A DNA stretch of 64,000 bases from a virus. The position numbers were made by a program, and so were the translations under genes. Positions 6,001-64,000 of the stretch are shown one piece after another. Within the stretch, counting starts at the first letter, position 1. Every line of letters starts with the position of its first letter. The stretch lies in the IMG/VR virus record IMGVR_UViG_3300010149_000010, one strand, 5' to 3'. The notes under the pieces were generated by a model. That model was given only the letters and a program-made list of their open reading frames with translations. It did not search any database and had not been told where the DNA came from.

Positions 6001-9000
6001 ACGTCTAAATGTATAAAACTACCTGCAGTGTTGGGCATAAGGTTATCATTAAAAATAGCTGCAGTGGGACCGGCGTTAGCGCCGGTCCCACTAATCCTGC
6101 CGCTTTGTCCCCCAATAGCACTACCGTAAATACCTATTCCAAAAATCCTTCTTCTGTTTCTTTTACCTTTTCTTTTGCCTATGCTGTCGAAGAAGAATCT
6201 TCTTTCTTCCAAGAGTTCAATTATTGCAGCTGCTTCACAAACATTCATATTATTTATGTATATGTCTGCAGCCCCACCTGTGAAGTGATTAGAAGCTGTA
6301 TCTCTGCTTCGTCCATCTAACTGTCTATCTAATGTAGAAAACGCATTGATAGCAAAATTCTTAGGGTTTGTTCCACTTATAGCTCTATGCTTTAAATAAA
6401 TATTTAAAAACTTCTGTAACGGGTCTAGGTAATCCTTACAAAATTCAAAAGCATTCTTATCTATATCCCCTACGAGTATTTTTTCAAGTCCTTGATTTTT
6501 AATCTGCGTCCTTAAATGCTTTTTTGAATGTGCATAGAAAGACTTCGCACCGAAATATATAGTATTCCAGTAATGATTTACATATTTGGCCGTAGAGTAC
6601 GACCTGGCATTACTGCTAACTGCACTTCCTCCTTGAGGACCAATATTAATGCCGCTTTGCTGAATTACTGAAGCGTACCTGCTTAAATAATTCTCATCTA
6701 CTTCGGAGCTTTTTGCCGCCCTTACTTCCTCTTCATCATAACACTTACTTTCACTAAAGCGTAAATTCAATCCAACCGCTCCCGGTGAACCTTCAATAGT
6801 AAATGTATCTACAGAAGAAATTAAAAATCTGGGTTTTATATCTCTGATTACAGCTTCTTGCTTGTTGTTAAACTCGACGACTTTTTCATCATTGTCAGCA
6901 TATTTAAAAGATCCTACAAGTTTTGTTATTAATGACTCAACGACAATATTTGCAGCGTCAGGTATTTGAGGAAAATTCTTAGCCATGTAAGCGGTATGCG
7001 CTCTGACGTTTTCTAATTCTTTGATTTTCGGAGGAAGCCCGTCACCAATTCCAGTGTACCCGATAAAATTAAACTGATAGCTAGGTTCTATGCTACCTAG
7101 AAACTGATGCGTAGGGTATTCATAACCAAGTACAGGAATAGAGCTGATAATGTTTCTCAAGCTACAAGAAACGTTTGTTATATCTTGCTCAAACTTTGGA
7201 AAAGAATCGCTGTTTACTCCGAAAGTATCCTTACCTGTGATCGCTTTAACATCTTCTTCAAACAAGTTAGAGTCGAATGAAAGTATCAGTGCTTTTTGAA
7301 AAACATTCTCTAGGCCACTTCGATACTGGTACTGAGAAAACCCTTCTTCTTCAATTACTCTTTTAATGGAGTTAATGTAAGGTAGATCCTTTTCAGTTAA
7401 ATATGTTTCGTTATCATTGCCTAATGAAACTTTAGAAACAGACCTTTTAACGACTTTACTGCTTTTTACATATTTTTCTTCTAAAGCTTTCCCAGTTAGT
7501 GTTAAGCAAAGATCATTTATTAATTGTCCACTTGCATTTATTGTAAACTCATTGTTCGTGTCAAAGTATCCAACTATTGTTCCCGCAGGAAAAACCTTTC
7601 CTTCTTGAGCCTTAATCCAATAACGCAAGTTCTCTTGCTCTTGTACTCCGCTGTATACTATCTTTTCTTCTTTTACACCACTTCCATTTGTAATAATTAT
7701 TTCCCCATTATTACTGTATGTGATCTTACCAGCTCTGATAGTCATTACTGCAAAAGCTAAATTGCTTGAATTGTTTTCATCCCATTCCTGAGTATTTTGA
7801 ACTTTATAGCCAGCGTTTGAAGTGCCTGTTATAAAAACATTACTACCAGGAGAATAATACCCAAAAGCTTGTAAAGATCTTTGTATTGGTAAAGAATATT
7901 CTTGAGAAATCGGGTCTATAGCTAGCCTTAAGTCTCTATCTTGTGGCGCACTTAAAGTTAAACCAGAGGTTACTGGTTTTGCTTCATTAATTACAGCTTC
8001 TTTTTTAGCTTCGTAGTCTTTGAAAAGTTTAAAGATTTTCTGTTTATTTTTTTTTATAACTTCATTTTGACTTTTTTCATTCATCCCTTTCACAATGCCT
8101 TTACGCAGACTTTTTCTGTGCCTGAATAGGAAGTTCCCCCCTAAGTTTAAAGACTTGTATTCCTTTGTCACAATTCTCGTATTAAGTCCACTCAACAGTA
8201 TCGAATGCGTCAGGTCTTTTCTGAACTTTAAAAGTTTATCATTTTTAATTCCATTAACTTTTAATTCGTGAATCCCTACTACGCTTGGTCTTTTAATGTT
8301 GCCTTCATACGCAGTACCCTGAAATAAATTGTAAACCTCTTCGTCTACAAATACCTCGTTTGGAACAAACTCTTCAATATTTTCCGTCCCTTTAACTACG
8401 TTTATTCCAAAACTTTCGTTTAAATATTTCAATTGCAAGAAGTTCGAATACCGTTTGTAAGCATTCGATTTTCTTGGGTCCGTAACAACACTTCTGCTTC
8501 TCGAAATAGCTTGTCTTGATAAGCTAAGAGGATTGTTACCATTAGGAGGGCTTAAGTCTCTTATTGTATTATTGCTACGTTTTAAATTTTTGCTGTATTT
8601 TAAAAGCGGCTTTCTTTGATCGGGCGTGCCTTTATATGTTGGGAAAATGGAATGCACATATTCTTTCACGCTTCCCTTATCTTCGACTTTCACTGTGTAG
8701 TCTTTTCTAAAGGTCAAAGATCTTCCAAAAGGTTTGTAGTTGAAATACCTTAGATCTAATTCTACTAAAAAAGCACCTGGCGAGCTAGGGTGGTTTGCAA
8801 TGTTCAAACCAAACACAGTAAAATAGTTAATTTGTGTAGCTACTGCATGGGTGTCTGATATGCTTTGCTGTATGAAACTATTTTGAATAGACACAAAAGG
8901 GTTGTTTCTTACTTGAGAAATCAATCGGTGCAAAAGTAGCAATGAGTCTGGTGCAAAAGTAATGCTAACCTGCGCGTGATAGTTACCATTTCCTGAAGCT

Positions 9001-9164: not shown

Positions 9165-12100
9165 TTAATCTCTCATCATTTTATTAATATAGGCATTACC
9201 TATCGGCCTTCTATTGTCGTTGACAGTCAGTGACGCCTGCCCTCCAGCCGATACAAAGTGCTTGCCCATAGTTTGAGCTGCAGAAAGGCTTGGAGCCTCT
9301 CCGTACATCTTAATTGAACGATTCAATGATACAGTACTCACTCCGCTATTGATAGGTCTTTCATAAAAATTATCAATCCCATTTATCTTACCTGGGCTTA
9401 CGTTTCCGTGCTCTCTACTAAAACTTTGTTGCAAAGCTCTATTGCTTAAACCTTGCCCCGCTTTTAAAGCTTCTTTAGAGATAGAATCGGAAAATTTACC
9501 TCCAGGTTCAAGCGAGCTGCTTGGCGAATTTGCTCCCACAGCATACGAAGCCAAAAGCGAACCTGCAATTACTCCAGCCAAACCCTTGCTCCTGCTAACG
9601 GTTTCGCTAAAAGCACTTCTAGCAGAATCTACTTTAGAAAAAATCGATTCTATTTCATCAAGCTCGCCAGTAATCACTCCACCTTCCATTGAAAAACCCT
9701 TGTTCATTAGTTGGAACAATTGCTGGCTGTTAAACCTAGAAGAACCTTCTAATTTTCTTCCAAGTGCCTTGTTAGATGTAAAATCGTTAAATCCATATTT
9801 TTTTACATTTCTAGCCATAACATCAAAAGAGTCAAATATTTCTTGGACATTTAAATTTACGTCTCCTAGAGCTTCTCTAAACTTTTTCGTTGCATTACCT
9901 TCTCCTAAGTTATGGAACTCAATTGACTTTGCATCTATTTTTAAGTTGCCTTCAGCATTTTCCAACAAAGTTCCTTTGAATATCTTGTCCTGGAAAAAGC
10001 TTTTTAGAGCATCGCCCTTACCCGTATTAAAAGATGTTTTTAAAGCACTTAGGTATTCCCTAGAAATGTTAGCAGCAATCGGAAGCTTCTTGCCTTTAAT
10101 TCCTAAAACTTCTTGAGCCACTGATATTAAAGCTGCTCCACTTTGAATTTTTTTAAATTGAGCTGCAAAATCTCCACTAGTATCATCTGCAGCAGACTGT
10201 GCAAGTCCCAGCATTCCTGCTTTAACTTGCACATCTAGACCACCAATTCCCTTTACTATTTGTTCTTTCTGGTACTCGTCTACAATGGACTGAGCAACTG
10301 TCATTTGTGAGGCTCCCATGCGCTTCCCTAGCTTCTCTACACCTTCCCCAAGCAGGCTCATGTTAGTTAGAAACTCTGCACCATAAGTGTACATTTTTTT
10401 TGCGTCGATCCCTTGGTTTTTCATTTTATTTTTTAAAGTCTTGTCTACATCAAAAAATACCTGATAAGGATCCGCGTCAAAGTCTCCAATGCCAAACCTT
10501 GCAAAATCCATGCGCCCAGAAAAGGCAGTCCTTTTACCTGTATTTACATCTTCTATTTGCATGCTCATGTCTATTTGAGGAAACCTTACAGTCCCTCCTC
10601 CATGCTCGCCTTTCTCTAAGTGCTTGTTAAGCATATCTTTATATATACCACCATAAGCACTAACTTGCTCTTCGTTTAGTTTTCCGCTTTCTTTCAACAA
10701 TCTTAGTTCAGCCAAATCGGCACCTGTTTTAACTTCTCTTCCCAAAACATCGTCTAGGATTTTTAAAGGCCTGCTTATACCAGGCGCTCTTGGCTGAGTT
10801 TTGTTTCCTTGAAAATCTGTATCTAAACCGCTTACTTCAGGAGCGTTGTTCATTATTTTTTCATCTATATCTTTTATAGTTATATCACCTTCATTTTCTA
10901 TTGATTCTTTTTGAGCATTTTCTATTAATTGTTTTTGAGCTTTGATTTCGTCTTCTTCTTGATTTAATCTTTCTATTTCTTCGAAAAGCGCTTTTCTGCG
11001 TTTTTGTTTACCCCTAAAAGGGTTTTTTTCCATTTCGTTAAGATCGCGCGTTGCTCTTTGTGAAATTTCTCTTTGTGAATAGAAATTTGACGCTCTATCT
11101 TTCACCTCTGACATTTTTACTTCTTCTCCTCTAGCTTCTCTTCTGATTACATCGTAGGCGTCTATCTTTGTAGCTTGAGGCGCAAGAGTGTAATTGCTGT
11201 TTTCATTAAGGACTTTTCTTACCCTTCCTCTGTTTCGAGAACTTATCCTCTCTAAGAACGGTTCGAGACTTTCTTCTGTAACCATGCCTTTTTTTCGTGC
11301 CGCTATAATTTCTTCAGAAACTGCTGGCCCCACTCCTTTTAGCTGCATCAATTCCTCTTTTGTTGCTAAGTTTAAATTCACAACACTCGCTCCACCACTT
11401 CTTACTTCTTTTATCCTCTGCGATATTTGCTCCCTATTCATATTGATTTTGCTCCGACCCTTGTTGTCAGGTTGAGCTAGTTCTTCTAAAGGGTTCAATT
11501 TACTCCCCGTTTGATTTCCATACTCATCAAGTAAGGGTACGTTTTTTCCAGAAAACTTTCTTGCTAAAAACTCGTTTTCAAAGCCTTCCAAGCTTCTCAA
11601 GTGAGTTTTATTGTCAGCATTAAAACCAAAAAAAGGTCCCATTTCGTTTATGAATCCAATAGCCTCTTTTTTATTTTCGAAATGCCTAAAAGAAGATGTC
11701 AACCTACCTTCATCTACACTCCTTCCATATGCTCCAACGTCTTCTATAGTTTCTGTGAACTCTCTTTCTAAACTACGTCTTATGTTTCCTTCAGAGACAT
11801 CACCGCCTCCAAGAACAGCCCTTCCGTAAACGTCTTTATTTTTATCAGCAGCGGTAATTTGTTCGTTAATTTTATGTATTTTATTATCAATAATTTTTGC
11901 TTCTTCATTAAGACCTTTAAGTTCCTCTGCCTTTTTGCTATATTCTGTAGTTTTTGTTGAACCAGCTTTATTAAACTTCTTAATTTGTTCAATTATCGGC
12001 TCGGCCTTTTTTTTTATTTTTGAAAACTGATCTTGCAAAAGAGCTACTTTACTATGACGTTTAGCTTGTGCTGCACCTACGTCTTCAGCAAGAAGGTTCA

Positions 12101-15100
12101 AATTACTTTCTTGAGGTAGGTTTCCTGAAAATACACCATGCCGCCTCTCTATAAACCCTCCAGGTTCTTCTAAAATCTTTGAAGCATCTCGCCTTTTGTT
12201 TAAAAGGGACTCCCTTTCAGCAACAAACTTTTCGTAACCTTCTTCACCTTTTATACTGGCTCTTTCTTGTTTGATTTCTTGCCTTTTGGCATAAACTTCT
12301 TGCCCCCTAGTATAAACAGCATCTCTTTCATCAAGTTTTTCTAAACCAGTAACCCCTTTTAATATTTCCGAAACTTTATCTTGGTTTAATGATTTTCTAA
12401 TCTTTTTAAGATGCTCTACATAATCCGGTGTAAACTCTTCTCCTTTTTCTACATTTCTTAAAAACTGTAGTGGTTTTAGCTCTTTTTCAAAATCGTATTG
12501 ATAAATACCCATGCTTGCAAAAATGTGTGAAAAACCTATGAGAGGATTTCTTTGTATCGTTCCAGAAATTCCTTCTTTTTTGCTTCGATGCATGCCAGTA
12601 AAAAAGGCTTCCAAAGTCTCTTCCATTATTTTGTTTGTTTCTTTTTTGGTAGAGACTTTACCTTGAGAAGCTAAATGTTTATTTATTGCTGATTCGTAGG
12701 TACCCATTCCATCTAGGAAAGCCTGTTGATCCATAAATGCAACATAGCCCATTTCTTTGTTTACCACTTCAGACAAAGAGTCTACAATTTGCTTTTGAAC
12801 ATTCAGATCATCGCTAAAGATTGTAGCTCCAACGCCTTTTTTTCCTAAAGTGAACCCACCTCCCATATAAGAGCCTGATCCTAAGATTTTACCACTTAGT
12901 GTACTCCTGATCGCTGTACCCGTTATTTTGCTTAATCTTTTTCTAACTTCAGTAAAGCCTGAAATTGATTTTTCGATTTCATCTTCATCAGTTCCAGCAT
13001 CCTTCAACGAAGATAAAGATGATAGCAAGTCTGTAATATTTCTTCCGTATTCAGCTTCTACTTTTATGACTTCATCACTCGACCTGATCTCATGGCCTAA
13101 AAACCCTTGAAAGGTATCTTCTCCTGGGAGAAATATTTCTTTTTTGCCTCCAGTAAATTCGTACAGCCTATCCAGCCCCTCTTTAGAGAGGCCCATTTTT
13201 TCTAAATCAAGTATGTTCCCTCCTTTCCTGGCAGACAGTTTTTCAACGACTTCTTTCTCTTTGCCTTGCCCAAGGTCTAAAAGTTCAGTTACCTCTTCTT
13301 CGGTTAGTTTACCAACATCGCTTAAACCTGATATCTGCTCTTTTATATTTGTTGCATCAAGCTTTCCAAGAGATTCTTGTGTCAGCTTCATTCCCATCAA
13401 GCCTCCAGCGCGACTTTCGAATCCTTCCATTCTGGTTATCATTGAAGAAACGTATCCCGTCGCTTCTTTTGAATCCATCCCCCAAAAGGATCTTAAAGAA
13501 GAATAAAGATAGTTCGCAAACCTTGGTTCAGCCTTAGCTACGCTTCTGCCCAGGTCTGTATGTGGAGTACCAACAGTTCCAAACGCAGCACCGATTACCA
13601 CACCTCTTTTTGCTGTCTCTTCGATTTTACTTAAATAGGGATCAACATCAACTACACCCGCGTCTTTTAAACCCGCAGCTATTTTTCTTTCAAAATATTC
13701 TAAGTTTAAACCAAACTTTTTATTGCTTGCTTGGTTTCTAGCATAAGACATTACCATTCCAAAATGATCAGCACTTATTCCTTCATCACCAGCCCTTTTT
13801 GCAATTGTTTGAAAGAACTTCCCTAAAGTTGAAGCGCTTTTTTGCTTTGCAGACACTTGGTCTACATTTGTTAGCGTGCTTTTAAAATCACCCAATTGGT
13901 TGTCATTTATTTCGGTAAGCAATTCATCTGCATTGTCTAAAGACCCCATACTAGTATTTAATGCTTTGTCCATTGCTGCTTCATCCAACCCGAGCATCTT
14001 CATACCTCCGTGTATCTGCGTACGCAGATACCCAGCAGACTTTCCCAATTGAGCTGTTGTGGTAAGCAAGGTGTTCTCTATCCTTCCCCCAAAACCGTCT
14101 TTATTGAAAAACACCTCTCCAATGTCACGAACACCCAACTCTTCCAGTTTCTTCAACATAGAAGATTCATTAATTGTAAGCGTTGTGTCTTTGGCTAAAG
14201 AAGAGAATAGTTTGCTATAATCAACGTCTTGCAACACTTGGCCTTTAAGATGGTAGCGGTCCCTTCCTGTTTCCATGCTTTTTTCAGAAAGCCCAAGCGT
14301 AAATCTTTTCATACCTTTGTGACGTTTGATGTGCACAATTCTGTCGTCTTGTTTTCCTAAAACAGCACGCCCTTCAGAATCTCCAAATTGTTTGAAAAAA
14401 TCATCAATATCGTAATCGTCACCATCAACGAGTGAACCTATAGTTAAAAACTTTCTGTTATTGTCTTTTGAAGCATTTAAAACTTCCGTCAATAACTTGC
14501 TCTGGTTAATACCTTCTTTGTTTATGGTTTTTGTATAACCTTTTTTAACCTGAATGGTGCCCCCCATATAACTCATCCCTTCACCAAGGCCTAATTGAGC
14601 AGCAGGGTTTTTTATTTTTTTTGCTCCGTGTTGTGCTTCTTCAAGTTTTTCAAAAATCATAATAGCGCCAAAGTTTACGCCTCTGATATTTTTAGATACT
14701 TCCTTATCACTGGTGATTCCAATCAATTCATTGCTTGCCCCAGATATTTTAATGTCTCCCTTTTTTCCAAAAGTAGCGTCTCTTTCAACACCTGCAAACC
14801 CTGCTGCTAATTCGGGTCTTCCGTAAACTTGACCAGCACGCGCTGTTTGAGGCACTAAACTGCGGTCCAGTCGCCCATACCTTTTCATCGCATTGAAGGC
14901 CGTTTTTGTTTTTGTTCCAGAATCATTCTCCAGTCGCTCAATATGACCTACTATCATTTCTCTTTTTAAATCAAATGGATCCTTAAATCTAGAAGTCAAA
15001 GTTTGCGAACCTGAAGTACCTCCATAAATTTCTGACTCATATTGAAGTATTTTTTTCGTTACTTGCTCCCTGTCTTTTTGTGCAAATTTTTCCAGTCCAG

Positions 15101-16352
15101 CAATTCTATGTATTGATGATTGAAAAGCTCGAGAATCTATAAGTGTAGACATCAAGTCTTTGTCGATTAAATTTATTTCTTTTCCACCATTAATTGTTCT
15201 GCTTGAATTCAATCCTTCAATCATTGTTCTTGGGGTCTCTATTGACATCGACCTAATATAGTCATTGTACTCATTTATATTTGTCACGCTAAAATTTTGA
15301 AAAGACTGTTTGTTTTCTTTTATCAATCCAAATAAATGATCTTCTAAGCTCATTGTAGCGTCTTTTAGCGCAGCTGCTGCCCCAGTCCCCTTTGGGGTTG
15401 CTAACTGATTCAAATCTAAACTAGGGAAAATTTTTGCAGCGTCTATTACACCCCCACTAGTAGTGTACCGTGTAGACATATTCTCCGTCCCTCTTATTAT
15501 TGTCATTCCAGATCTTGGGTCTTTAGCCAGGTCTAAAGCTACGTTTTGAAACCTCCCACTGCTATGCTCTACTCTCGCATAAGTAGACTTACCTTCACCT
15601 GGTCCATACTCTTCTAAAGATACTAATTGTATATTCTTTCCTGAAGCCATGGATTTAAGTTCCCCATATTTCTTCGTCGCTTTTCTACTCAGATCACTTG
15701 TCGATGCTGACTTCCACTCTACAGTGGAGGTTCCTTCTGTTGTGAAATCTTTGAAGGTGGTATTGAATTGGCCTTTTGTTTTCATCATTGAAGAGTGTCT
15801 TTTTTTGAATTCTTGCAACTTTGGACCGCTAGTACTTACACTACTTTTATAAAAATCAATAGCAGTCCGCATATCAACCTGTTCGATGTTTCCTGTTTCA
15901 ACACCTTGGTACAGTTTTTCTAACGATGCTTTTAGTGATCCCGAATCATCAATCATGCTTTCGCTAGCAGTATCAAAAAGTGCTGACAAAAAAGCCCTTG
16001 CTTCATTTGCGGAAGATGTTTCATTAAACATTCTTTCTAGGTTCTCACTACTTAAAATCTCCTCTTTAAAAGTTTTAAGTGCTACTTTCCTGCTTTCGTT
16101 TACAACACTCTTTAACCTTTCAGCATCTTTTCTAATTATGCTTCCTGCCCGACCTAACTCATTTTGCGAAGCAGAAGAGTTCTTTAAAGCCCCTAAGCTC
16201 TTCTTTACACCTGATGTTAAATTTACATTCTCGTTTAACAGGTAGGCTGTCCCAGCCACAGCAGCGGCTCCTATTACTGTGCGTCCAGTGTTTTTTATAT
16301 TCGACACTTCTTTATCTTTTTGCTGCTCATTTAATAGATTTATTAAAGACAT
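9165..16352 (-). CDS. 2395-aa tape-measure-locus protein, candidate virion (tail-delivered) two-barrel RNA polymerase with ComEA-like HhH insert
   Basis: GIGDFDADPY (10470-10484, D1957/D1959/D1961); QRNP (12543-12551); upstream GLGEGMSYM and KLFSSLAK; downstream KGIGGLD and AQEVLGIKGK; HhH VNLNLATKEELMQLKGVGPAVSEEIIAAR (about 11290-11382); lies between the tape measure and hub genes. Confidence 0.65.
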   Translation of the reverse strand: MSLINLLNEQQKDKEVSNIKNTGRTVIGAAAVAGTAYLLNENVNLTSGVKKSLGALKNSSASQNELGRAGSIIRKDAERLKSVVNESRKVALKTFKEEILSSENLERMFNETSSANEARAFLSALFDTASESMIDDSGSLKASLEKLYQGVETGNIEQVDMRTAIDFYKSSVSTSGPKLQEFKKRHSSMMKTKGQFNTTFKDFTTEGTSTVEWKSASTSDLSRKATKKYGELKSMASGKNIQLVSLEEYGPGEGKSTYARVEHSSGRFQNVALDLAKDPRSGMTIIRGTENMSTRYTTSGGVIDAAKIFPSLDLNQLATPKGTGAAAALKDATMSLEDHLFGLIKENKQSFQNFSVTNINEYNDYIRSMSIETPRTMIEGLNSSRTINGGKEINLIDKDLMSTLIDSRAFQSSIHRIAGLEKFAQKDREQVTKKILQYESEIYGGTSGSQTLTSRFKDPFDLKREMIVGHIERLENDSGTKTKTAFNAMKRYGRLDRSLVPQTARAGQVYGRPELAAGFAGVERDATFGKKGDIKISGASNELIGITSDKEVSKNIRGVNFGAIMIFEKLEEAQHGAKKIKNPAAQLGLGEGMSYMGGTIQVKKGYTKTINKEGINQSKLLTEVLNASKDNNRKFLTIGSLVDGDDYDIDDFFKQFGDSEGRAVLGKQDDRIVHIKRHKGMKRFTLGLSEKSMETGRDRYHLKGQVLQDVDYSKLFSSLAKDTTLTINESSMLKKLEELGVRDIGEVFFNKDGFGGRIENTLLTTTAQLGKSAGYLRTQIHGGMKMLGLDEAAMDKALNTSMGSLDNADELLTEINDNQLGDFKSTLTNVDQVSAKQKSASTLGKFFQTIAKRAGDEGISADHFGMVMSYARNQASNKKFGLNLEYFERKIAAGLKDAGVVDVDPYLSKIEETAKRGVVIGAAFGTVGTPHTDLGRSVAKAEPRFANYLYSSLRSFWGMDSKEATGYVSSMITRMEGFESRAGGLMGMKLTQESLGKLDATNIKEQISGLSDVGKLTEEEVTELLDLGQGKEKEVVEKLSARKGGNILDLEKMGLSKEGLDRLYEFTGGKKEIFLPGEDTFQGFLGHEIRSSDEVIKVEAEYGRNITDLLSSLSSLKDAGTDEDEIEKSISGFTEVRKRLSKITGTAIRSTLSGKILGSGSYMGGGFTLGKKGVGATIFSDDLNVQKQIVDSLSEVVNKEMGYVAFMDQQAFLDGMGTYESAINKHLASQGKVSTKKETNKIMEETLEAFFTGMHRSKKEGISGTIQRNPLIGFSHIFASMGIYQYDFEKELKPLQFLRNVEKGEEFTPDYVEHLKKIRKSLNQDKVSEILKGVTGLEKLDERDAVYTRGQEVYAKRQEIKQERASIKGEEGYEKFVAERESLLNKRRDASKILEEPGGFIERRHGVFSGNLPQESNLNLLAEDVGAAQAKRHSKVALLQDQFSKIKKKAEPIIEQIKKFNKAGSTKTTEYSKKAEELKGLNEEAKIIDNKIHKINEQITAADKNKDVYGRAVLGGGDVSEGNIRRSLEREFTETIEDVGAYGRSVDEGRLTSSFRHFENKKEAIGFINEMGPFFGFNADNKTHLRSLEGFENEFLARKFSGKNVPLLDEYGNQTGSKLNPLEELAQPDNKGRSKINMNREQISQRIKEVRSGGASVVNLNLATKEELMQLKGVGPAVSEEIIAARKKGMVTEESLEPFLERISSRNRGRVRKVLNENSNYTLAPQATKIDAYDVIRREARGEEVKMSEVKDRASNFYSQREISQRATRDLNEMEKNPFRGKQKRRKALFEEIERLNQEEDEIKAQKQLIENAQKESIENEGDITIKDIDEKIMNNAPEVSGLDTDFQGNKTQPRAPGISRPLKILDDVLGREVKTGADLAELRLLKESGKLNEEQVSAYGGIYKDMLNKHLEKGEHGGGTVRFPQIDMSMQIEDVNTGKRTAFSGRMDFARFGIGDFDADPYQVFFDVDKTLKNKMKNQGIDAKKMYTYGAEFLTNMSLLGEGVEKLGKRMGASQMTVAQSIVDEYQKEQIVKGIGGLDVQVKAGMLGLAQSAADDTSGDFAAQFKKIQSGAALISVAQEVLGIKGKKLPIAANISREYLSALKTSFNTGKGDALKSFFQDKIFKGTLLENAEGNLKIDAKSIEFHNLGEGNATKKFREALGDVNLNVQEIFDSFDVMARNVKKYGFNDFTSNKALGRKLEGSSRFNSQQLFQLMNKGFSMEGGVITGELDEIESIFSKVDSARSAFSETVSRSKGLAGVIAGSLLASYAVGANSPSSSLEPGGKFSDSISKEALKAGQGLSNRALQQSFSREHGNVSPGKINGIDNFYERPINSGVSTVSLNRSIKMYGEAPSLSAAQTMGKHFVSAGGQASLTVNDNRRPIGNAYINKMMRD

Positions 16353-57599: not shown

Positions 57600-57622
57600 A
57601 AGCCCCCTTCGGGGCTTTTTTT
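57600..57622 (+). terminator. Intrinsic terminator
   Basis: AAGCCCC-CTTC-GGGGCTT followed by a T run. Confidence 0.85.
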
Positions 57623-57660
57623 AATTTACCCTACTTCAATGGATGCTTAAGCACATCCAT
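57617..57660 (+). promoter_or_regulatory. Repeated AATTT-N10-AATGG-hairpin element, copy 1 (candidate phage promoter)
   Basis: TTTTTTAATTT ACCCTACTTC A ATGGATG-CTTAAGCA-CATCCAT. Confidence 0.55.
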
Positions 57661-57732
57661 CTCTCATGTTGAGGGTAAAGCGCACCAGTGCAATGCTTCT
57701 ACGCAATTCTTCGTTGTCGGAAGGACATCATC

Positions 57733-59022
57733 ATGCGTAACTTATCTATCCTTGCCTTTATTGGCTTCCTATTCTTATTCACTGGCTGCGGCGTTGTGCG
57801 CAATGTGGCCTCAACCCTCAACCACGAGATCTGCGAAAAGAGCTACAACAAGTTTGTATGCCCAACCGTATCTGAACCAGCACATACACCCCTCTGCTAT
57901 GGGGTAAGTGTACGCACCACTGCCGGAGTCGATAACTTTGCCCATACCGATCAGGGGCCATTTTGCAAGAAACTCCAAAATGAGGCTACGCGTAAAGCCT
58001 TCCAATCAAAGCCAGGGACAACCTGCGCCATCAAAGGCAAGGGTAAATTTCAGAAGGTTGTATGTGCCGGCTTCCATCACGCTGGCGGCATCTTACTCAT
58101 CCTCTTGACGCTTCTTTGGGGGCGTGGTTTACGCGATCTTATGGTCGCTAGTGTAGAGAATGAAGATACCCGTCGCCCCTTTGATGGAATGTGGGAGGGG
58201 TGCAGAGTGATGATTATCGCCTGCATTGGGGCTGTGGTTTTACTAGCGTTAACCACAAACGCTTATAGCCAGCCTTGTGTCAACAAGGCTTATACAATAA
58301 GTCAACCGTCTGACATCTTGGAGTGCGAGATGACCCTCTCCACTCCAGAGAGCAACATGAGGTATACTTTAACGGCCCTAGATTTGGCTCAAGATAAAGT
58401 CTGCAATATACACCATCCGAACATGGGCATTGTAGCTTGCTACGACCTCTATGACGAGGCCCGCGCCCTCTTTAAGGCGAGGGCAGCCTTGTTGATGCTG
58501 AAAGAAGCGACACGAATCGTTGATATCAATGAAAGCGTCACGACCCCCACGCCATGTGGGGCAAATAAGCACTTGTGTGCTTCAGTGGGATGGGATAAGG
58601 CAAGTGGAATCGGCCTATTCTTTTCCTTCATCATTTCTTTACTCCTCTCTCGTCGCAAGACGAGAGAGGAGTGGTTCGGTTTTGAAACACTCCTGTACAG
58701 GGAGACGAGGAACGCCGTTTGGGCAATCGAGGACGAGCTATACAAAGCTCGTTGGATCGAGCGTGTGATTGAGGCTGCAATCACTCTCGCAGCCTTCTCT
58801 TTTGGGGGGCTCGTATTAGGGATTACATCCACCTTCTTGGCCCAGAAGAGATACGGGTGGGCGAGCATCTTCTGTGTGTTCGTATCAGTTCTCCTCTGGG
58901 GCTCTGCCCTGGAATGGATCCTTTTTGTACTCAAAGCATTAACGTGCTTCCTCTCAAACACTGAGGAGGGGTTCCGTTTCGTTAGGTGGGCGCTCCATCA
59001 GCGATGGAAACGTCAACTGTAA
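57733..59022 (+). CDS. Cys-rich multi-pass membrane lipoprotein (429 aa)
   Basis: RBS GAAGGA before ATG 57733; MRNLSILAFIGFLFLFTG-C lipobox; two Cys-rich regions each followed by TM segments. Confidence 0.65.
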   Translation: MRNLSILAFIGFLFLFTGCGVVRNVASTLNHEICEKSYNKFVCPTVSEPAHTPLCYGVSVRTTAGVDNFAHTDQGPFCKKLQNEATRKAFQSKPGTTCAIKGKGKFQKVVCAGFHHAGGILLILLTLLWGRGLRDLMVASVENEDTRRPFDGMWEGCRVMIIACIGAVVLLALTTNAYSQPCVNKAYTISQPSDILECEMTLSTPESNMRYTLTALDLAQDKVCNIHHPNMGIVACYDLYDEARALFKARAALLMLKEATRIVDINESVTTPTPCGANKHLCASVGWDKASGIGLFFSFIISLLLSRRKTREEWFGFETLLYRETRNAVWAIEDELYKARWIERVIEAAITLAAFSFGGLVLGITSTFLAQKRYGWASIFCVFVSVLLWGSALEWILFVLKALTCFLSNTEEGFRFVRWALHQRWKRQL

Positions 59023-59056: not shown

Positions 59057-59080
59057 AGCTCCCTTTTGGGAGCTTTTTTT
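59057..59080 (+). terminator. Intrinsic terminator
   Basis: AGCTCCC-TTTT-GGGAGCT followed by T6. Confidence 0.85.
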
Positions 59081-59115
59081 AATTTACTCCTTTTAATGGG
59101 GGTTTAACATCCTCC
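59075..59115 (+). promoter_or_regulatory. Repeated AATTT-N9-AATGG-hairpin element, copy 2
   Basis: TTTTTTAATTT ACTCCTTTT AAT GGGGG-TTTAACAT-CCTCC. Confidence 0.5.
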
Positions 59116-59175: not shown

Positions 59176-59814
59176 ATGGCTTATAAAATCTTTAACAACA
59201 CAGGGCGAGCCCTGTGCAGCGAAAGAGAGAATGGTTTTATTGTTCTCTTCTCAGAAAAAAGAGATTTCAAAGACTACCAATTCAACGACCTCGACGGAAA
59301 AGCGATAGTAGAGGCGATCTGGAGTCCAAGCGGTTTTGTTGACGCTCACTATTTCTTCTTCAGCAAAGTCTGGTTTTCTGCAGACAAGGTGAGATCATTC
59401 AACGATCTGTGCATCGTAAAGCGTGATCCAGCGTACCCAGAGCGCTTCATCGAAACACCTGTCAAGGAACTTAAAGAGAGCGTATTCCAGGCAATTCTTT
59501 CATGTTCATTTGACGGTGTTTCTGATGACGAGCTTCAAGACCTTGCTAATCTTCGATCCACATTTGAAGATGATCTTCGTCGCGCAAGAGACGAGGTAGA
59601 GAGATTCGCGCATTCGTGGAGATGCAGGGATGGGAGCGTTCTCCCAGCACACGATCAAAAGGTCATTATCCAGCTCCGTGAAGAAGAAAAGAAGAGGGTC
59701 GACCCATCACTGTTGCTCCATTCCTATCACCACCTTATGATGGAGTTCAGAAGAGAGCTCCATCGCAGAGGACTAATTCTGAGAATGGGGAACATCGTTC
59801 CTTTTCAATATTGA
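59176..59814 (+). CDS. Hypothetical early protein (212 aa)
   Basis: RBS CAGGAG; bounded by terminators on both sides. Confidence 0.7.
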   Translation: MAYKIFNNTGRALCSERENGFIVLFSEKRDFKDYQFNDLDGKAIVEAIWSPSGFVDAHYFFFSKVWFSADKVRSFNDLCIVKRDPAYPERFIETPVKELKESVFQAILSCSFDGVSDDELQDLANLRSTFEDDLRRARDEVERFAHSWRCRDGSVLPAHDQKVIIQLREEEKKRVDPSLLLHSYHHLMMEFRRELHRRGLILRMGNIVPFQY

Positions 59815-59853
59815 TCGCTAAAAGAGCCAACTGAAGATTAAGAAACACCTAAA

Positions 59854-59891
59854 GCCCTGGAGTGCACCACCGCACTTCGGGGCAGTTTTTT
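59854..59891 (+). terminator. Intrinsic terminator
   Basis: GCCCTGGAGTGC-ACCACC-GCACTTCGGGGC (12-bp stem, 2 G-U) then AG and T6. Confidence 0.8.
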
Positions 59892-59931
59892 AATTTGTTT
59901 CCTTTAATGGAGAGATTATAGCAACTCTCCA
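59886..59931 (+). promoter_or_regulatory. Repeated AATTT-N9-AATGG-hairpin element, copy 3
   Basis: TTTTTTAATTT GTTTCCTTT AA TGGAGAG-ATTATAGCAA-CTCTCCA. Confidence 0.55.
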
Positions 59932-60002
59932 GCCTTCAGAATAGAAGGTGCCATTAGGCTTCGTGGTATACACACAACCCCCTACAGAAAGGGACTGAGA
60001 CA

Positions 60003-63000
60003 ATGCGTAAAGCAATTTTCTCACTTTTCCTTGGCCTGCTGTGGGCAGCTAGCTGTTATTCAGTCTATGTTGCTCCTCTAGCATTGCCTGCGTCCGCCGT
60101 GGATGCAGCGCCAATTGTTCATCCTTCAGCAGAGGTCGCAAAACCTCTTGCTACCAACCGCACTGACAACGCAACTGCTGAGATTGACCATCTTCGCAGT
60201 ACTACTATTAACAGTGGAAGCTCTACCCCTAGTCAAGGTACCTTCCCCATTAATAACCCTAACGCATTACGTCCTCGTCGTAGAGGTATTATGCGTCGCA
60301 GAAAGCTGAAGTCACGAAAGGGCAACCGCCTTGTTAGTGATGCCTTTATCAAATTTGTCTTTGGTTACCACCGTGTAACTTACATGAGTGGCAATTGGCT
60401 GTGTTACGAAGAGACGCCTTACACAGAGGCAGACTTCAAAGTGAGTAAACCAGCTAAAGCTCGTAAGAAAGCGAAGAAATCCTGGCGTCAGCTAAAGGGT
60501 GAGGCAACACGTCTTTACCAGAAGGCTGCAAAGCTTCGTAAGCGCAATCCAGAATATCCGCCTGCAATAGCCTGTGCGGTGTTTGCCAAAGCACAAAAAC
60601 TTCATCATAAAGCCAATGATATGAAGAAGGCATTAAAAGAGGCTCAACCGACAGCACGTCAACAGCGTTCATTCCGACGCTCAGTGTTGAGAGCGGAAGC
60701 CAAAACTTGCGAGCAGTTTATCAAAGCTGAGTTAGTGAGCAATGTGGACCAAGCTAAAGAGCTGATTCAAAAGGTCCTCAGTGGTGACACTAATGGAGCT
60801 GCATTGAGACTATTACAAAAATCTCAATTAGGGCGCATTTACGTAAAATATGGTATCCTCCAGGCGCCGATGAAAGAGGAAGAAGTCGAGAGACCTACGA
60901 ACCCAGTAGTCAGACACATCAAAGTAGCAGAAACCCCTGCAAGGGTATGGACCCCATTGATGCGTGCAGCGATTATAGTTATTGCACCACTCATGCTAGG
61001 TATGGATGCGGATGTAGGTACCGTCGCAGAAGTCACTTATGCTAGTGCTTCTGGTGGTATTTTAATGATGACCCTGAAGAACGTCTTGAATACTCCAGCC
61101 CGTAAGCGTGAAGCAGCGCAAGACGGGTACAATCGTTACGCAGAGCAGTCGATCAAAGCTGCAAAGGGTAGTGAATGGGATGTTTTCTCCCTCATGCGAT
61201 TCAGTCGCAGTGGTAAAGGTGCGCCGATCACCAACGGCAAAGCCCACGATACTGACAAGCAGAAGGGTCGTGCTGTCCGTATTATTCAAGATAGCATCGG
61301 CGGGGCGTACTGCCCAAAGGTAAAGTCATTCGCCAGGATGCTTGGAATTGAACTCGGCGTGGACAACTGTCTCCGTTATGAAGTTGACGACCAAATGGAT
61401 GAGGTACTAAAAGCTGACGTCGTCGAGATCTTAATGGCAGCCAGCTTTGTTATTCTTTGTGACGGCTTTGCTGTTCACAAGAGCATTGCTCGCCCCTTCA
61501 TTGAGTACGGGGAGACTATGTTCGGCAATGCTGTAGCTGTGCGCTCTTACTTCCGCAGTCTAATCACCACACCAGAGCTCTACACGGTCAACCAGGACTT
61601 ACCTATCTTCTTGGGTGACCTCGATGAGCTTATGGGATGGGCGGAGAACGATGGTGGCGCTGTGCATACCAATCGCCTGAGCGTGAGCATGCAGTTCCGA
61701 GGGATCGCGAAAGTGCTTGAGGCGAAGTACCGCATCTTGTCCAAGGGCATCACAACTTCTGCTAAGGTTATTGCTGACATCACTGATGACGTCGACAAGC
61801 CTGTCTTCGTCAACTATGAAGGCGATGAGGAAGGCCACATCAAGGGTGAGGTTCGCCTAAGCAAAAAGGTTGACGAGTGCATCCGTGTTGCAGTAGAGGA
61901 AGAATTCAACGCTCTGCATGCTGTTAACACGGCGACTAAAGAGCAGCTTTGCTTAGTTGCAGGAATTGGCCCTAAGACCGCTGAAAAGATCGTTGAAGCT
62001 CGTAATGCTGCAGGTGGGGCATTCGCTGACATGGATGCGTTCTACAACGTGTCAAGGCGCCTTGATCCCAGCAACCCGGACGCGCTTCGCGTCTTGCGTT
62101 GGTCTTTTGGCCACAAGGGCCGTGTTTACTCAGTGGGCCTATTCCTTGACAAGGGTTGTCTCAAGGGAGAAGACAAGAATGCTTGGGACTGGAACAAGCT
62201 CAACTTCTTCGGCGTCAACGGCCAAAATGTCGACTTCTGGTCTATCGCTATCGACCAGATTGGCGGCAAGATCAGCTTGGGCTGGCAGGTAGTCCAGTTA
62301 TTAGACGCTGACTTCATCGGCGGTTTGTTCAAGAACACTGATGGTAGTCTTGGAATCGCGGCCCAAAAGTTAGCGCGCCAGATCGACAATGCAATCGAGC
62401 AGGAACACCCTCTTTGTAAGCATCTCCTTGATGCAATTGAAGACAAGGGCGGTGACATTGAAAACTTGATGTCAGCCGTAAAAGCTATTTCCGTGCTTCA
62501 GGGCCTCGGGAAGACCGCCTCTAAGCGCATCAGCAATGGTCTCGGTGCGAAGGCAGGATCTTACTATGTTCAGATGATCGACATGGGTGGCGACTGGGTA
62601 ATTATCAAAACACCCAAGGCCAAGGATGGCAAGGGTTACAAGCGATGGGCTACTTGCTTCTTCGGTCGTACACCGAACCAGGGGCACGAGACCGTCCGCG
62701 CACCTATGGCGCTATCACCAACTTATGTCGGTGGATTCTTGAGGGATTATCTTGATAATGGCTTTGACGCTGTAGAGAAGCACGGCAAACAAGCCGTAAA
62801 ATTCGTTATGGGTCTCAATGATGCTTGTGGTCATGATACCGATGTAGTACGTCTTCGCTGCCGTGCGATCTTGACGATGCTCCCAGCTGTAATTGATGGA
62901 ATTGCTTTAGTCGACTCAACTCTACAACAAAAGGTATGCGGCGACAATGATGGCGACCGTAACATGATCAGCTTCGACAAGATGCTCGTTGCAATCGCCA

Positions 63001-64000
63001 AGCATATCACCCGTAAGCATCCTACTACATTCCCTGCGCGCGAGCAGTCAAAGAAGTTCGTTCTCAATACCTTTGATGATGTGGTCTTGGAGAAGGGCGG
63101 CTGGCTTCGTAGCTTTAACAAGTACATGAAAACAGGTGACTCTTCGGAGTTGCTTCTCATTTCCAAGTTCCTTTCTGCCCCCGGTGGGACTCCAGGGCAA
63201 GGGAACGTGGGTGGTGTGACGCAATGTGCTGCTGCACCAATGCTTTTCTGTGACTGGCACTGGGTCAAGAAGGATGGCAAAGATGTCTACGAGCCAGTCA
63301 ATCCAGCCGCTCGCAAGTTGGTCAATTATCTTTACTTGTGCCAGCAGATCGCCATTGACCGCCAAAAGTATTACTATTTGGCGCCTTCGCTGCTGCATTG
63401 GTTCTTTGCTGACCTTGAGGTTGGTGACGCAGTCATCAAAGAGTTGAAGGCAGGCGGCCATGCGGACACTAATTGGCTTCACAGTCACTACCCAATTCAG
63501 GGTGCTGCTGATATGTCGTTCGAAGAATACCAAGCCGCTTGGAAAAATGGTACATTGCCTGTGATCTCAGAGATCATCCCAGGCATGGGTAAAGGCGCTA
63601 TGGGCGGTCAATCTGTCGCTCCGATGATGTACTCCAACGGCCCGCTTTACGTGTGGACCGCGTGGCAGGTTAACGGTATTAACCTCGGCTTTGATTACTT
63701 CGATAAAGACAGGATGGTTGAGCTTTCTGGGTTCTTTGACGAAGAGATTGCTCAGACTGCTGACTGGCAGGGTATCATTGACCACCTCAATCTCAGTGTC
63801 TCAGCTGAACAGCTCGAGGAAAGCTGGGTGTGGCCTGGCTACATCACGGGTTGGGTCAACACCAACTTCCGTGAGTCTCAAGATCTCTCTCCAGAGACCT
63901 TCCAGTCTGCTCGCATCCATGCCAACAATGTGTGGCTCGAGAAAATGGAGCAGGCAGGTATCGATGCTGACCCAGCCGTAACTCTCGTTGAGAGTGGGTT
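60003..64000 (+). CDS. Single-chain two-barrel RNA polymerase of the YonO / cellular-RdRP-like type (>1332 aa, runs off window end) with hydrophobic N-terminus and HhH insert
   Basis: Hand translation from ATG 60003 gives an uninterrupted frame with ordered motifs NDGG (61647), QFRG (about 61692), SKG (61740), KGCLK, SLGWQVVQLL, GRTP (62664-62675), GDNDGD (D981-D985, 62943-62957), GNVGGVT, QQIAIDRQK (63342-63368). Confidence 0.85.
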   Translation, partial: MRKAIFSLFLGLLWAASCYSVYVAPLALPASAVDAAPIVHPSAEVAKPLATNRTDNATAEIDHLRSTTINSGSSTPSQGTFPINNPNALRPRRRGIMRRRKLKSRKGNRLVSDAFIKFVFGYHRVTYMSGNWLCYEETPYTEADFKVSKPAKARKKAKKSWRQLKGEATRLYQKAAKLRKRNPEYPPAIACAVFAKAQKLHHKANDMKKALKEAQPTARQQRSFRRSVLRAEAKTCEQFIKAELVSNVDQAKELIQKVLSGDTNGAALRLLQKSQLGRIYVKYGILQAPMKEEEVERPTNPVVRHIKVAETPARVWTPLMRAAIIVIAPLMLGMDADVGTVAEVTYASASGGILMMTLKNVLNTPARKREAAQDGYNRYAEQSIKAAKGSEWDVFSLMRFSRSGKGAPITNGKAHDTDKQKGRAVRIIQDSIGGAYCPKVKSFARMLGIELGVDNCLRYEVDDQMDEVLKADVVEILMAASFVILCDGFAVHKSIARPFIEYGETMFGNAVAVRSYFRSLITTPELYTVNQDLPIFLGDLDELMGWAENDGGAVHTNRLSVSMQFRGIAKVLEAKYRILSKGITTSAKVIADITDDVDKPVFVNYEGDEEGHIKGEVRLSKKVDECIRVAVEEEFNALHAVNTATKEQLCLVAGIGPKTAEKIVEARNAAGGAFADMDAFYNVSRRLDPSNPDALRVLRWSFGHKGRVYSVGLFLDKGCLKGEDKNAWDWNKLNFFGVNGQNVDFWSIAIDQIGGKISLGWQVVQLLDADFIGGLFKNTDGSLGIAAQKLARQIDNAIEQEHPLCKHLLDAIEDKGGDIENLMSAVKAISVLQGLGKTASKRISNGLGAKAGSYYVQMIDMGGDWVIIKTPKAKDGKGYKRWATCFFGRTPNQGHETVRAPMALSPTYVGGFLRDYLDNGFDAVEKHGKQAVKFVMGLNDACGHDTDVVRLRCRAILTMLPAVIDGIALVDSTLQQKVCGDNDGDRNMISFDKMLVAIAKHITRKHPTTFPAREQSKKFVLNTFDDVVLEKGGWLRSFNKYMKTGDSSELLLISKFLSAPGGTPGQGNVGGVTQCAAAPMLFCDWHWVKKDGKDVYEPVNPAARKLVNYLYLCQQIAIDRQKYYYLAPSLLHWFFADLEVGDAVIKELKAGGHADTNWLHSHYPIQGAADMSFEEYQAAWKNGTLPVISEIIPGMGKGAMGGQSVAPMMYSNGPLYVWTAWQVNGINLGFDYFDKDRMVELSGFFDEEIAQTADWQGIIDHLNLSVSAEQLEESWVWPGYITGWVNTNFRESQDLSPETFQSARIHANNVWLEKMEQAGIDADPAVTLVESG

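Follow-up and report, generated by a model that had tools for sequence, protein, structure and literature searches.

Phage RNA polymerases (RNAPs) are model enzymes whose site of action is mostly assumed to be the cytoplasm. Regulators of the ToxR/CadC type exert DNA-directed transcription functions while tethered to the inner membrane; these are small DNA-binding activators, however, not polymerases, and are non-homologous to the protein described here. For the virion RNAPs (vRNAPs) gp50 of phage N4 and gp71 of Pseudomonas phage DEV (Schitoviridae) a membrane-spanning N-terminal domain has been proposed, and in the corresponding model the polymerase is held at the inner membrane (PMC11445570, PMC13434306), which provides a precedent for a membrane-held polymerase (PMC13434306). 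The ejected N4/DEV enzymes are reported to be free of cysteine (PMC11445570). In P23-45 the virion RNAP forms a fusion with a tape-measure protein that has membrane domains (bioRxiv 10.1101/2022.12.01.518664), and the preprint on gp66 of the crAss-like phage phi14:2 mentions no membrane segment. N-terminal membrane modules are lacking in QDE-1, plant RDR2 and SPbeta YonO, which are cellular or prophage enzymes. No report of a membrane-anchored two-barrel phage RNAP came up in literature searches. The preliminary description of the present locus had called a membrane anchor unusual for this family: this stands for two-barrel RNAPs of the YonO, gp66 and gp64 type, for which none has been described, but needs qualification in view of the membrane domains proposed for the N4/DEV and P23-45 vRNAPs.

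We analyzed a 64,000-nt stretch of DNA (the window) in which the gene for a giant RNAP of an uncultured marine phage begins. Like N4 gp50 and DEV gp71 the window protein is a giant with a three-part layout, and both types have a predicted membrane-spanning domain before the RNAP core, a likeness that is an analogy of layout only. However, the N4/DEV core has the T7-like single-subunit fold whereas the window protein has the two-barrel fold and in this respect is not of the N4 type. The N4/DEV transmembrane (TM) helices are internal (residues 572-820 in DEV) and do not form an N-terminal signal-peptide-like leader; the N4/DEV enzymes lack cysteine and are encoded beside ejection proteins in the late region, whereas the window protein has 28 Cys and lies among small, early-looking genes. 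The two-barrel enzymes gp64/gp62 of P23-45/P74-26 comprise about 590 aa, with no membrane segment described in the paper, as compared with 2174 aa for the window protein, which, unlike them, is extended at both termini and contains an HhH insert. The crAss-like gp66 (6VR4) is also a single-chain two-barrel RNAP, of 2180 aa; it is packaged in the virion and encoded in the structural block.

The polymerase and its reading frame

The gene and the landmarks of the polymerase body are located as follows.

59988-59994, + strand: Shine-Dalgarno-like AAAGGGA, 9 nt upstream of the ATG, conserved in relatives
60003, + strand: ATG start of the polymerase ORF (2174 aa), which extends past the end of the window
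61065-63998, + strand: strongly conserved polymerase body from its start, continuing beyond the window to the last residue of the protein, 2174
about 61908-62057, + strand: HhH insert
62667-62684, + strand: RTPNQG
62940-62957, + strand: GDNDGD
63201-63215, + strand: GNVGG
63348-63368, + strand: IAIDRQK

Judged by its motifs and its modelled fold, the window protein is a single-chain two-barrel RNAP of 2174 aa, with RNA synthesis as its predicted activity. The DxDGD, RxPxQ and Q..ID.QK motifs are invariant in the family alignment. GDNDGD (residues 980-985) supplies the DxDxD/DxDGD metal-binding loop of the beta'-like barrel, which reads DNDGD here and DFDID in gp66; the D, D, G and D of this loop do not change in any of 21 sequences, which reach down to ~21% identity. 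In the beta-like barrel the basic residues K721 and K725 show almost no variation, and the RxP motif that precedes DxDGD, R889-x-P891-x-Q893, does not vary at all. An AF2 model of the core (pLDDT 75) gave QDE-1, crAss gp66 and P74 gp62 as top Foldseek matches, gp66 ranking second with a weak score (prob 0.28); the fold of the catalytic core is common to the window protein and the solved two-barrel RNAPs. The assignment as RNA polymerase made in the preliminary description is thereby borne out and narrowed to the two-barrel kind. Searched against the PDB by sequence and by profile, the core gave no match and no detectable similarity to the QDE-1/RDR2 type, tblastn of the core against GenBank phages gave none, and a search of IMG/VR returned just one related locus. 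PHROGs and Pfam yielded nothing for the N-terminal region, the sole Pfam match in the protein being the HhH insert.

A second large ORF of the window was considered as a possible virion RNAP, on the model of P23-45 with its two polymerases, a vRNAP fused to the tape-measure protein and an early non-virion RNAP.

9165-16352, - strand: 2395-aa ORF with conserved QRNP and GD[FY]DAD motifs

The comparisons lent this reading no support, but the model used in part of them is poor at the motif: hhalign against the RNAP profile gave a probability of <1%, a PDB profile search returned HhH and coiled-coil matches only, and the AF2 model was poor around the motif (pLDDT <50), with only coiled-coil proteins returned by Foldseek.

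The first ~340 codons belong, by comparison with relatives, to the polymerase as a genuine, translated, constrained and conserved part. Nine homologues (2059-2189 aa) from ENA, JGI, Logan and TARA assemblies keep a single ORF, one of them (P0005) being read on 24 contigs, and all indels among relatives are in frame. Purifying selection acts on codons 90-354 (dN/dS 0.07-0.28), including the variable basic region (0.14-0.18), and AAAGGGA or GGAG is kept before the ATG in relatives. A separate upstream gene, fused through a lost stop codon or by mis-assembly, had been named as the finding that would overturn the preliminary description. It could appeal to P0012, a 417-aa protein that matches residues 4-413 only, but P0012 is cut by the end of its 2285-nt contig, the full-length relatives, which come from independent assemblies, all retain an undivided ORF, and the search of representatives gave no free-standing N-terminal or N-terminally shortened form, fragments of the contig-end type aside. 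The chance that the region is a separate gene is practically negligible.

Homologue alignment places the onset of strong conservation at about residue 355, with the N-terminal module kept as well. A possible internal start had been noticed at this very point.

61053-61070, + strand: GGTGGT (61053-61058) and in-frame ATGATG (61065-61070, codons 355/356), judged to be a chance occurrence

From here a soluble polymerase would be made beside the anchored form. GGTGGT agrees with GGAGGT in 5/6 positions at a distance of 6-9 nt upstream of the ATGs, relatives of at least 66% full-length identity retain M356, and the site falls exactly at the onset of strong conservation. However, relatives have other bases in place of GGTGG (ACAGCGACA in L002 and L001, GCGGGT in L006), and L007 does not conserve them either; M355 varies (M/K/V/A), and in P0010 the aligned position is not a Met. 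Moreover, 40 of the 440 internal in-frame ATGs of the window's genes (9%), three of them in the polymerase ORF, have a Shine-Dalgarno-like match at least as good. To judge from these comparisons the second start looks like chance, and the proposal of long anchored and short soluble isoforms, which we regard as very improbable, is not upheld.

The N-terminal module and the structured mRNA

All sequence features that had been named for the N-terminal region are present, and the module is composed as follows.

60003-60098, + strand: signal-peptide-like leader, residues 1-32, reading MRKAIFSLFLGLLWAASCYSVYVAPLALPASA; n-region MRK, h-region AIFSLFLGLLWAA, candidate signal-peptidase sites C18-Y-S20 and A30-S-A32, each followed by V
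60099-60269, + strand: S/T/P/N/A-rich, slightly acidic linker, residues 33-89
60270-60320, + strand: Arg-rich cluster R90-K106, RPRRRGIMRRRKLKSRK; its (L)RPRxR motif recurs in distant relatives
60321-60944, + strand: strongly basic variable region, including KARKKAKK (K152-K159, 60456-60479)
60945-61001, + strand: second hydrophobic segment V315-G333, containing the conserved motif PLMxG and of marginal TM quality here (hydrophobic part L319-G333 at 60957-61001)

The proposed order of elements would thus be a Sec-type signal or signal anchor (1-20/32), a flexible linker (33-89), the RPRxR cluster (90-106), a basic stretch (107-310), the PLMxG hydrophobic segment (315-333) with an acidic flank on its C-terminal side, and the polymerase body from ~355 on. 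Residues 90-320 contain 54 K/R and 20 D/E (net charge +34); the very basic stretch 107-310 is, by its composition, probably helical and nucleic-acid-binding. P0007 and P0008 carry a different module in place of the variable basic region.

The leader codons overlap a second conserved feature, at the level of RNA.

59854-59883, + strand: intrinsic-terminator-like hairpin at the end of the upstream gene unit
59888-59930, + strand: third copy of the element TTTTAATTT-N-AATGG, then a hairpin GGAGAG..CTCTCC (59909-59930)
59943-60275, + strand: structured RNA domain, 5' UTR and codons 1 to ~90

The element TTTTAATTT-N-AATGG occurs three times on the + strand, as against 0.04 copies expected by chance, and also precedes the two preceding + strand genes; together with its hairpin it may serve as a phage-specific promoter or as a regulatory element. 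Downstream of it the 5' UTR and codons 1-90 form a conserved structured RNA, as predicted by folding and comparison with relatives and newly noticed here. In the predicted structure a long-range helix pairs 59943-59952 with 60237-60245 and encloses hairpins at 60039-60081, 60088-60108, 60129-60151 and 60174-60200, the AUG lying inside a small hairpin. The z-score of the domain is -3.5, and pairing stands at 89.5%, as compared with 35-49% for slid controls, with 16 pairs changed on both sides. Synonymous-site conservation reaches 77% in the structured region versus 19.5% gene-wide. An overlapping ORF was rejected as its cause: relatives break the +1 frame ORF (60103-60309), and no start is conserved in the antisense frame. 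Rfam returned a sub-threshold chance match only for 59700-60500. The structured mRNA probably controls translation or stability of the polymerase gene. Conservation of the leader may partly reflect this overlapping RNA structure and not the peptide, which counts against a membrane function of the leader.

Evidence for a proposed membrane signal

All nine homologues (46-100% identity) retain both hydrophobic stretches, the leader and the second segment. The preliminary description had spoken of a signal-peptide-like N-terminus, and this holds: an n/h/c layout with small residues at -3/-1 is kept in 11 leader-bearing sequences (P0002-P0009, P0012, P0017 and P0021), all of which show the pattern [C/S]-x-[S/A/G] followed by V. 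By a manual rule, as opposed to a trained predictor, the layout is of the Sec type (SPase I), with a positive n-region, an h-region of 10-15 residues and small -3/-1 residues. The leader reaches 49% identity in P0017 and P0021, with a core of only 23-27%. The early mature region is compatible with export, as residues 21-46 contain no K or R and residues 33-89 contain 5 D/E versus 3 K/R; residues 90-320 at net +34 are not export-like. A lipoprotein reading (SPase II) of C18 was rejected: AAS-C of the window protein fits a permissive form of the lipobox [LVI][ASTVI][GAS]C, but position -1 is V, T or F in relatives, and in P0009 the Cys is missing. The 95-aa leader was found on no other kind of protein among proteins of 168-2000 aa, which is weak evidence, and no second copy of it occurs in the window or in the relatives' loci.

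In distant relatives (23-40% core identity) the N-terminal region, and no other part of the protein, contains 1-4 stronger TM-like helices. Helices of strong hydrophobicity (KD 2.0-3.1) lie within the first ~400 residues of P0010, P0011, P0013, P0014, P0017, P0018, P0020, P0022, P0024, P0025, P0028 and P0029. With a strict criterion (an uncharged run of at least 17 residues with mean KD of at least 1.8) applied to 19 family representatives, 17 runs were found in the first 430 residues and none in the other ~30,000. N-terminal hydrophobicity exceeds chance, and predicted TM-like helices are a family-wide property confined to the N-terminal region. The window protein's own segments fail the strict criterion, with a KD19 of about 1.75, a value much like that of a buried core strand; their moderate hydrophobicity suggests signal-peptide grade, not strong-TM grade.

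This moderate hydrophobicity would also suit a cytosolic protein whose N-terminus is no membrane signal at all, the hydrophobic start being either a helix buried in the fold or a side effect of the RNA structure, and the basic region binding nucleic acid. The strong nucleotide-level constraint, with compensatory changes within h-region codons, points the same way, as does the failure of charge counts to give a consistent topology. We consider this unlikely, however: relatives with unrelated leaders and without nucleotide similarity (P0010, P0020, P0022, P0024, P0028, P0029, P0011, P0013 and P0018) still have stronger TM-like helices (KD 2.0-3.1), and only in the N-terminal region.

Because of the Sec-type layout, and of the much stronger TM helices that distant relatives have in this position, the best reading is a polymerase tethered to the membrane, as had been suggested. 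The first ~340 codons would accordingly form a genuine N-terminal module that most likely attaches the RNAP to the host cytoplasmic membrane, a statement that on sequence grounds we hold at about an even balance. The polymerase would be made early or in mid-infection and not packaged; the leader would target it to the membrane while its body works in the cytoplasm, and phage transcription might be concentrated at the membrane, possibly at the site of DNA entry. Positive-inside charge counts across the family gave no consistent topology and often placed the polymerase 'outside'. The net charge of +34 makes residues 90-320 improbable as a periplasmic loop, which was counted against membrane attachment; a simple 2-TM hairpin is awkward for the window protein for this reason. 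The acidic flank that follows the second hydrophobic segment likewise speaks against attachment.

Synthesis in the cell or delivery with the virion

Membrane contact could also be made from the other side. The RNAP may be packaged in the virion and expelled with the DNA, its hydrophobic leader and its Arg-rich or basic N-terminal domain entering or crossing the inner membrane from the periplasmic side, so that the polymerase stays anchored at the entry site and transcribes early genes. This role has been proposed for N4 gp50 and DEV gp71 and resembles T7 gp16. The size of 2174 aa and the NTD-RNAP-CTD layout recall crAss gp66 (2180 aa) and N4 gp50, and for these vRNAPs an NTD that spans the membrane has been proposed directly ahead of the RNAP core. 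An N-terminal domain of net charge +34 would suit DNA binding and electrophoretic entry, and the charges flanking the TM segments break the rules of co-translational insertion. The early-type genes lack a sigma70-like promoter, so a pre-made phage RNAP may be needed, and the 2395-aa ORF gave nothing as an alternative virion RNAP. On the other hand, the polymerase has 28 Cys (1.3%), while likely internal or ejected proteins of this phage are strictly Cys-free: no Cys occurs in five proteins of the structural/packaging block (2395, 1465, 1361, 579 and 366 aa) nor in any of the 18 relatives of the 2395-aa protein. The gene lies outside the structural block, among small, early-looking + strand genes that share the cassette of terminator, TTTTAATTT..AATGG and hairpin, and a small-gene neighbourhood was seen in all eight relatives examined. 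A canonical Sec-type leader would send the protein to the membrane during synthesis, and the best structural neighbours include the non-virion P74 gp62. We regard ejection from the virion as possible but doubtful; between the two routes, synthesis and insertion in the infected cell are slightly favoured over virion delivery as for N4 gp50.

No sigma70-like promoter was found before the polymerase gene itself. If the polymerase is the sole phage RNAP and is not delivered by the virion, transcription of its gene is hard to account for, which counts against synthesis in the cell. All phage RNAPs of more than 2000 aa that are known to us are virion proteins, and this likewise counts against a non-virion enzyme.

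Were the polymerase delivered by ejection, the N4 idea of a polymerase as part of the DNA ejectosome would extend to the two-barrel fold and to a contractile-tailed phage; were it made in the cell, it would be, to our knowledge, the first integral-membrane DNA-dependent RNAP. Either outcome offers a testable handle on how a large phage genome is transcribed, and perhaps pulled in, at the envelope. Extending the membrane-attached reading to the family as a whole, we tentatively propose giant two-barrel RNAPs of uncultured marine phages that are made in the infected cell, are inserted co-translationally into the host inner membrane by a Sec-type leader or TM helices and carry out membrane-fixed transcription, their synthesis being gated by a structured mRNA leader of ~330 nt that overlaps the signal-peptide codons. 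Such a membrane-fixed polymerase could reel in the 160-kb genome or organize it at the envelope. With a structured RNA overlapping the peptide, the leader would provide a clean case of dual peptide and RNA constraint.

The polymerase gene and its N-terminal module

The window comes from an uncultured marine phage (G+C 39.5%, contig ~159 kb) whose relatives are present in the TARA, GOS and JGI marine metagenomes; its polymerase has no match among cultured phages. By sequence alone (PDB, Pfam, PHROGs) only a ComEA-type HhH insert of the polymerase was matched. That the ORF encodes an RNA polymerase is established by an alignment of 21 sequences (residues 690–1420, relatives to ~21% identity), in which RxPxQ, G-DxDGD, GQ..G and Q..ID.QK are invariant, and by an AF2 model covering this part (mean pLDDT 75), for which Foldseek ranked QDE-1, crAss-like phi14:2 gp66 and P74 gp62 at the top. 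Every residue and base cited in the preliminary description was found in place. The layout of the window and of the polymerase gene is:

3–55862, − strand: structural/packaging block (terminase, portal, major capsid and sheath-like genes)
From ~57.0 kb, + strand: small genes, then the polymerase ORF
60003 to window end, + strand: polymerase ORF (full product P0002, 2174 aa)
Codons 1–32: leader MRKAIFSLFLGLLWAASCYSVYVAPLALPASA
Codons 33–89: S/T/P/N/A-rich linker
Codons 90–106: basic tract RPRRRGIMRRRKLKSRK
Codons 152–159: KARKKAKK
Codons 319–333: second hydrophobic segment LMRAAIIVIAPLMLG
61053–61058: GGTGGT
61065–61070: ATGATG, codons 355/356

The N-terminal region belongs to the polymerase gene. 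We rejected a separate upstream gene: nine homologues from independent assemblies (46–100% identity, 2059–2189 aa), one of them read on 24 contigs, have the same uninterrupted ORF, and the sole N-terminus-only protein, P0012 (417 aa), breaks off where its 2285-nt contig ends. AGGAG-type Shine-Dalgarno (SD) sites are usual for the window's genes; AAAGGGA lies 9 nt before the ATG at 60003 and is kept at five relatives' loci (L002, L005, L006, L008 and L009). All indels among the polymerase relatives are in frame, and a dN/dS of 0.07–0.28 in codons 90–354 indicates purifying selection. Strong conservation sets in near residue 355 and more distant relatives can be aligned from ~340–390 onward, so that residues 1–~340 make up a module of their own that is more plastic. 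In two relatives, P0007 and P0008, a shorter, different segment replaces residues ~90–310. Compared with window 60240–60945, this swap begins just past the nucleotide-conserved island encoding GSSTPSQG and rejoins at the PLMxG segment; from the sequences it looks like recombination at conserved boundaries.

An internal start at codons 355/356, proposed earlier as the source of a soluble isoform, is very improbable, and we regard this part of the observation as ordinary. GGTGGT matches GGAGGT at 5/6 positions; at a spacing of 4–10, an equal or better SD-like match precedes 40 of the 440 internal in-frame ATGs in the window's genes, three of them within the polymerase ORF. The SD-like bases are replaced in relatives (ACAGCGACA at L002 and L001, GCGGGT at L006), residue 355 is M, K, V or A, and in P0010 no Met aligns there.

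Conserved RNA structure at the 5′ end of the gene

A conserved structured RNA spans the polymerase 5′ UTR and codons 1–90 (59943–60275, + strand); no Rfam family matches it. In codons 2–90, 77% of the amino-acid-invariant degenerate codons are identical in four relatives, compared with 19.5% gene-wide, and pS in this stretch is 0.15–0.45 against 0.6–0.8 elsewhere. At locus L009, where the polymerase core is only 27% identical, 81.5% of the 60 nt upstream of the gene and 67% of the nucleotides encoding the leader match the window. An overlapping ORF was ruled out, as it does not account for this constraint. RNAalifold yielded 10 helices with 89.5% of cells paired (35–49% with partners slid) and 16 pairs changed on both sides (4–8 with partners slid), values reached by none of 500 shuffles, although these counts are biased in favour of a structure derived from six sequences only. 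Nine compensatory pairs fall within the signal-peptide h-region codons. The single-sequence fold has −101 kcal/mol, compared with −83.6 ± 5 for shuffles (z = −3.5). A long-range helix (59943–59952 with 60237–60245) closes the structure, and the AUG sits inside a small hairpin, an arrangement suggestive of control at the level of translation. Because of the nucleotide constraint, part of the leader conservation may be RNA-driven; such a constraint cannot explain TM helices in relatives with unrelated sequences.

Hydrophobic segments and probable membrane attachment

The comparative evidence indicates that the hydrophobic N-terminus is meaningful. Close relatives as well as P0017 and P0021 (core 23–27% identical, leader 49%) share an n/h/c layout, after which come [C/S]-x-[S/A/G]|V and then SVS[A/V]|VDAAP. 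Relatives with unrelated N-terminal sequences have much stronger TM-like helices at or soon after the start. TM-like helices (KD, hydropathy score) in relatives' proteins are:

P0010, residues 16–34: KD 2.9
P0022, residues 7–25 (KD 3.1) and 133–151
P0017, residues 183–201: KD 2.7–3.0
P0020, P0024, P0028, P0029, P0018, P0014, P0011, P0013: further stronger helices

By a strict criterion (uncharged run of at least 17, mean KD at least 1.8), 19 representatives have 17 TM-like runs, all of them within their first 430 residues; the other ~30,000 residues contain none. In many family members an Arg-rich (L)RPRxR cluster lies ahead of the next hydrophobic helix. The signal-peptide-like N-terminus noted before is upheld by the conserved layout and the family-wide enrichment, but P0002's own segments are only moderately hydrophobic, the second having just 13 uncharged residues between R321 and D335; this is more in keeping with a cleavable signal peptide than with a permanent anchor. 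Reading C18 as a lipoprotein cysteine does not hold up in relatives.

Most probably, the N-terminal module attaches the polymerase to the cytoplasmic membrane. Of the membrane-tethered RNAP proposed earlier, the conserved module, the TM-like helices enriched there, the RNAP fold and the gene context are supported directly, whereas we infer actual membrane insertion, topology and expression timing. The mode of anchoring would be decided by virion or non-virion status. For a tether synthesized in the infected cell we see the chances as evenly balanced; delivery from the virion by ejection appears rather unlikely. For N4-like phages, the idea of a phage RNAP held at the membrane is already established as a proposal: in the N4 and DEV virion RNAPs a membrane-spanning NTD is proposed to hold the refolded enzyme at the inner membrane (PMC11445570, PMC13434306). 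For two-barrel phage RNAPs of the YonO, gp66 or gp64 type, no paper that we found describes a segment for membrane attachment or a signal sequence. Ejection would agree with the giant size and three-part layout, reminiscent of N4 gp50, DEV gp71 and crAss gp66, with a net charge of +34 over residues 90–320 and with TM flanks whose charges break the positive-inside rule if the polymerase is taken to be cytoplasmic.

Gene context and cysteine-free proteins

Three times (0.04 expected by chance), a terminator leads into TTTTAATTT-N-AATGG and then a hairpin of variable sequence, once ahead of each of three consecutive genes:

57619–57642, + strand
59077–59099, + strand
59888–59910, + strand

None of the TTTTAATTT copies resembles a sigma70 promoter, and the lack of such a promoter ahead of the polymerase gene would suit ejection; however, the gene is the third of these three + strand units, and small ORFs surround it in all relatives examined, both of which speak against ejection. 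The upstream neighbour (57688–59022, + strand; likely true start ATG ~57733) has no Pfam or PHROG match. From the internal Met it reads MRNLSILAFIGFLFLFTGC, a lipoprotein-type signal, with ~six TM-like segments and 19 Cys; given these segments, the early-looking block also codes for an integral membrane protein. On the same strand 3′ of the polymerase gene, two small ORFs (~142–185 and 111–185 aa) without Pfam match are present in all lineages seen (L002, L006, L008, L009, L010 and L011), possibly conserved accessory genes.

Cysteine content also speaks against ejection: the ejected N4 and DEV polymerases are reported to lack Cys (PMC11445570), whereas the window's polymerase has 28, compared with none in five proteins of the structural/packaging block:

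9165–16352, − strand: 2395 aa
16354–20751, − strand: 1465 aa
51020–55105, − strand: 1361 aa
45965–47704, − strand: 579 aa
49917–51017, − strand: 366 aa

The 2395-aa protein has 18 relatives in the database (2031–3057 aa), and these too are all Cys-free. By analogy with the N4/DEV vRNAP, zero Cys may mark capsid-internal or ejected proteins; the Cys-free set would then be the phage's likely internal or ejected proteins, the polymerase not among them.

In P23-45 the virion RNAP lies at the tape-measure locus (bioRxiv 10.1101/2022.12.01.518664). As a candidate for a second RNAP of this kind we compared the 2395-aa ORF, in which QRNP and GD[FY]DAD motifs are conserved alongside a ComEA-type HhH; none of the comparisons lent support to an RNAP fold. 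With hhalign it did not match the polymerase profile, and a PDB profile search gave HhH and coiled-coil matches only. Its AF2 model (pLDDT 64) is mostly coiled coil, and Foldseek returned SMC-like coiled coils for this model, which is poor at the motif (pLDDT <50 around GDFDAD). As modelled, the protein looks coiled-coil-rich and tape-measure-like. In the adjacent ORF (3–9161, − strand; 3053+ aa), residues ~1171–1283 correspond to an Amidase_2 (N-acetylmuramoyl-L-alanine amidase) domain, which suggests a virion-associated cell-wall hydrolase inside a giant tail protein.
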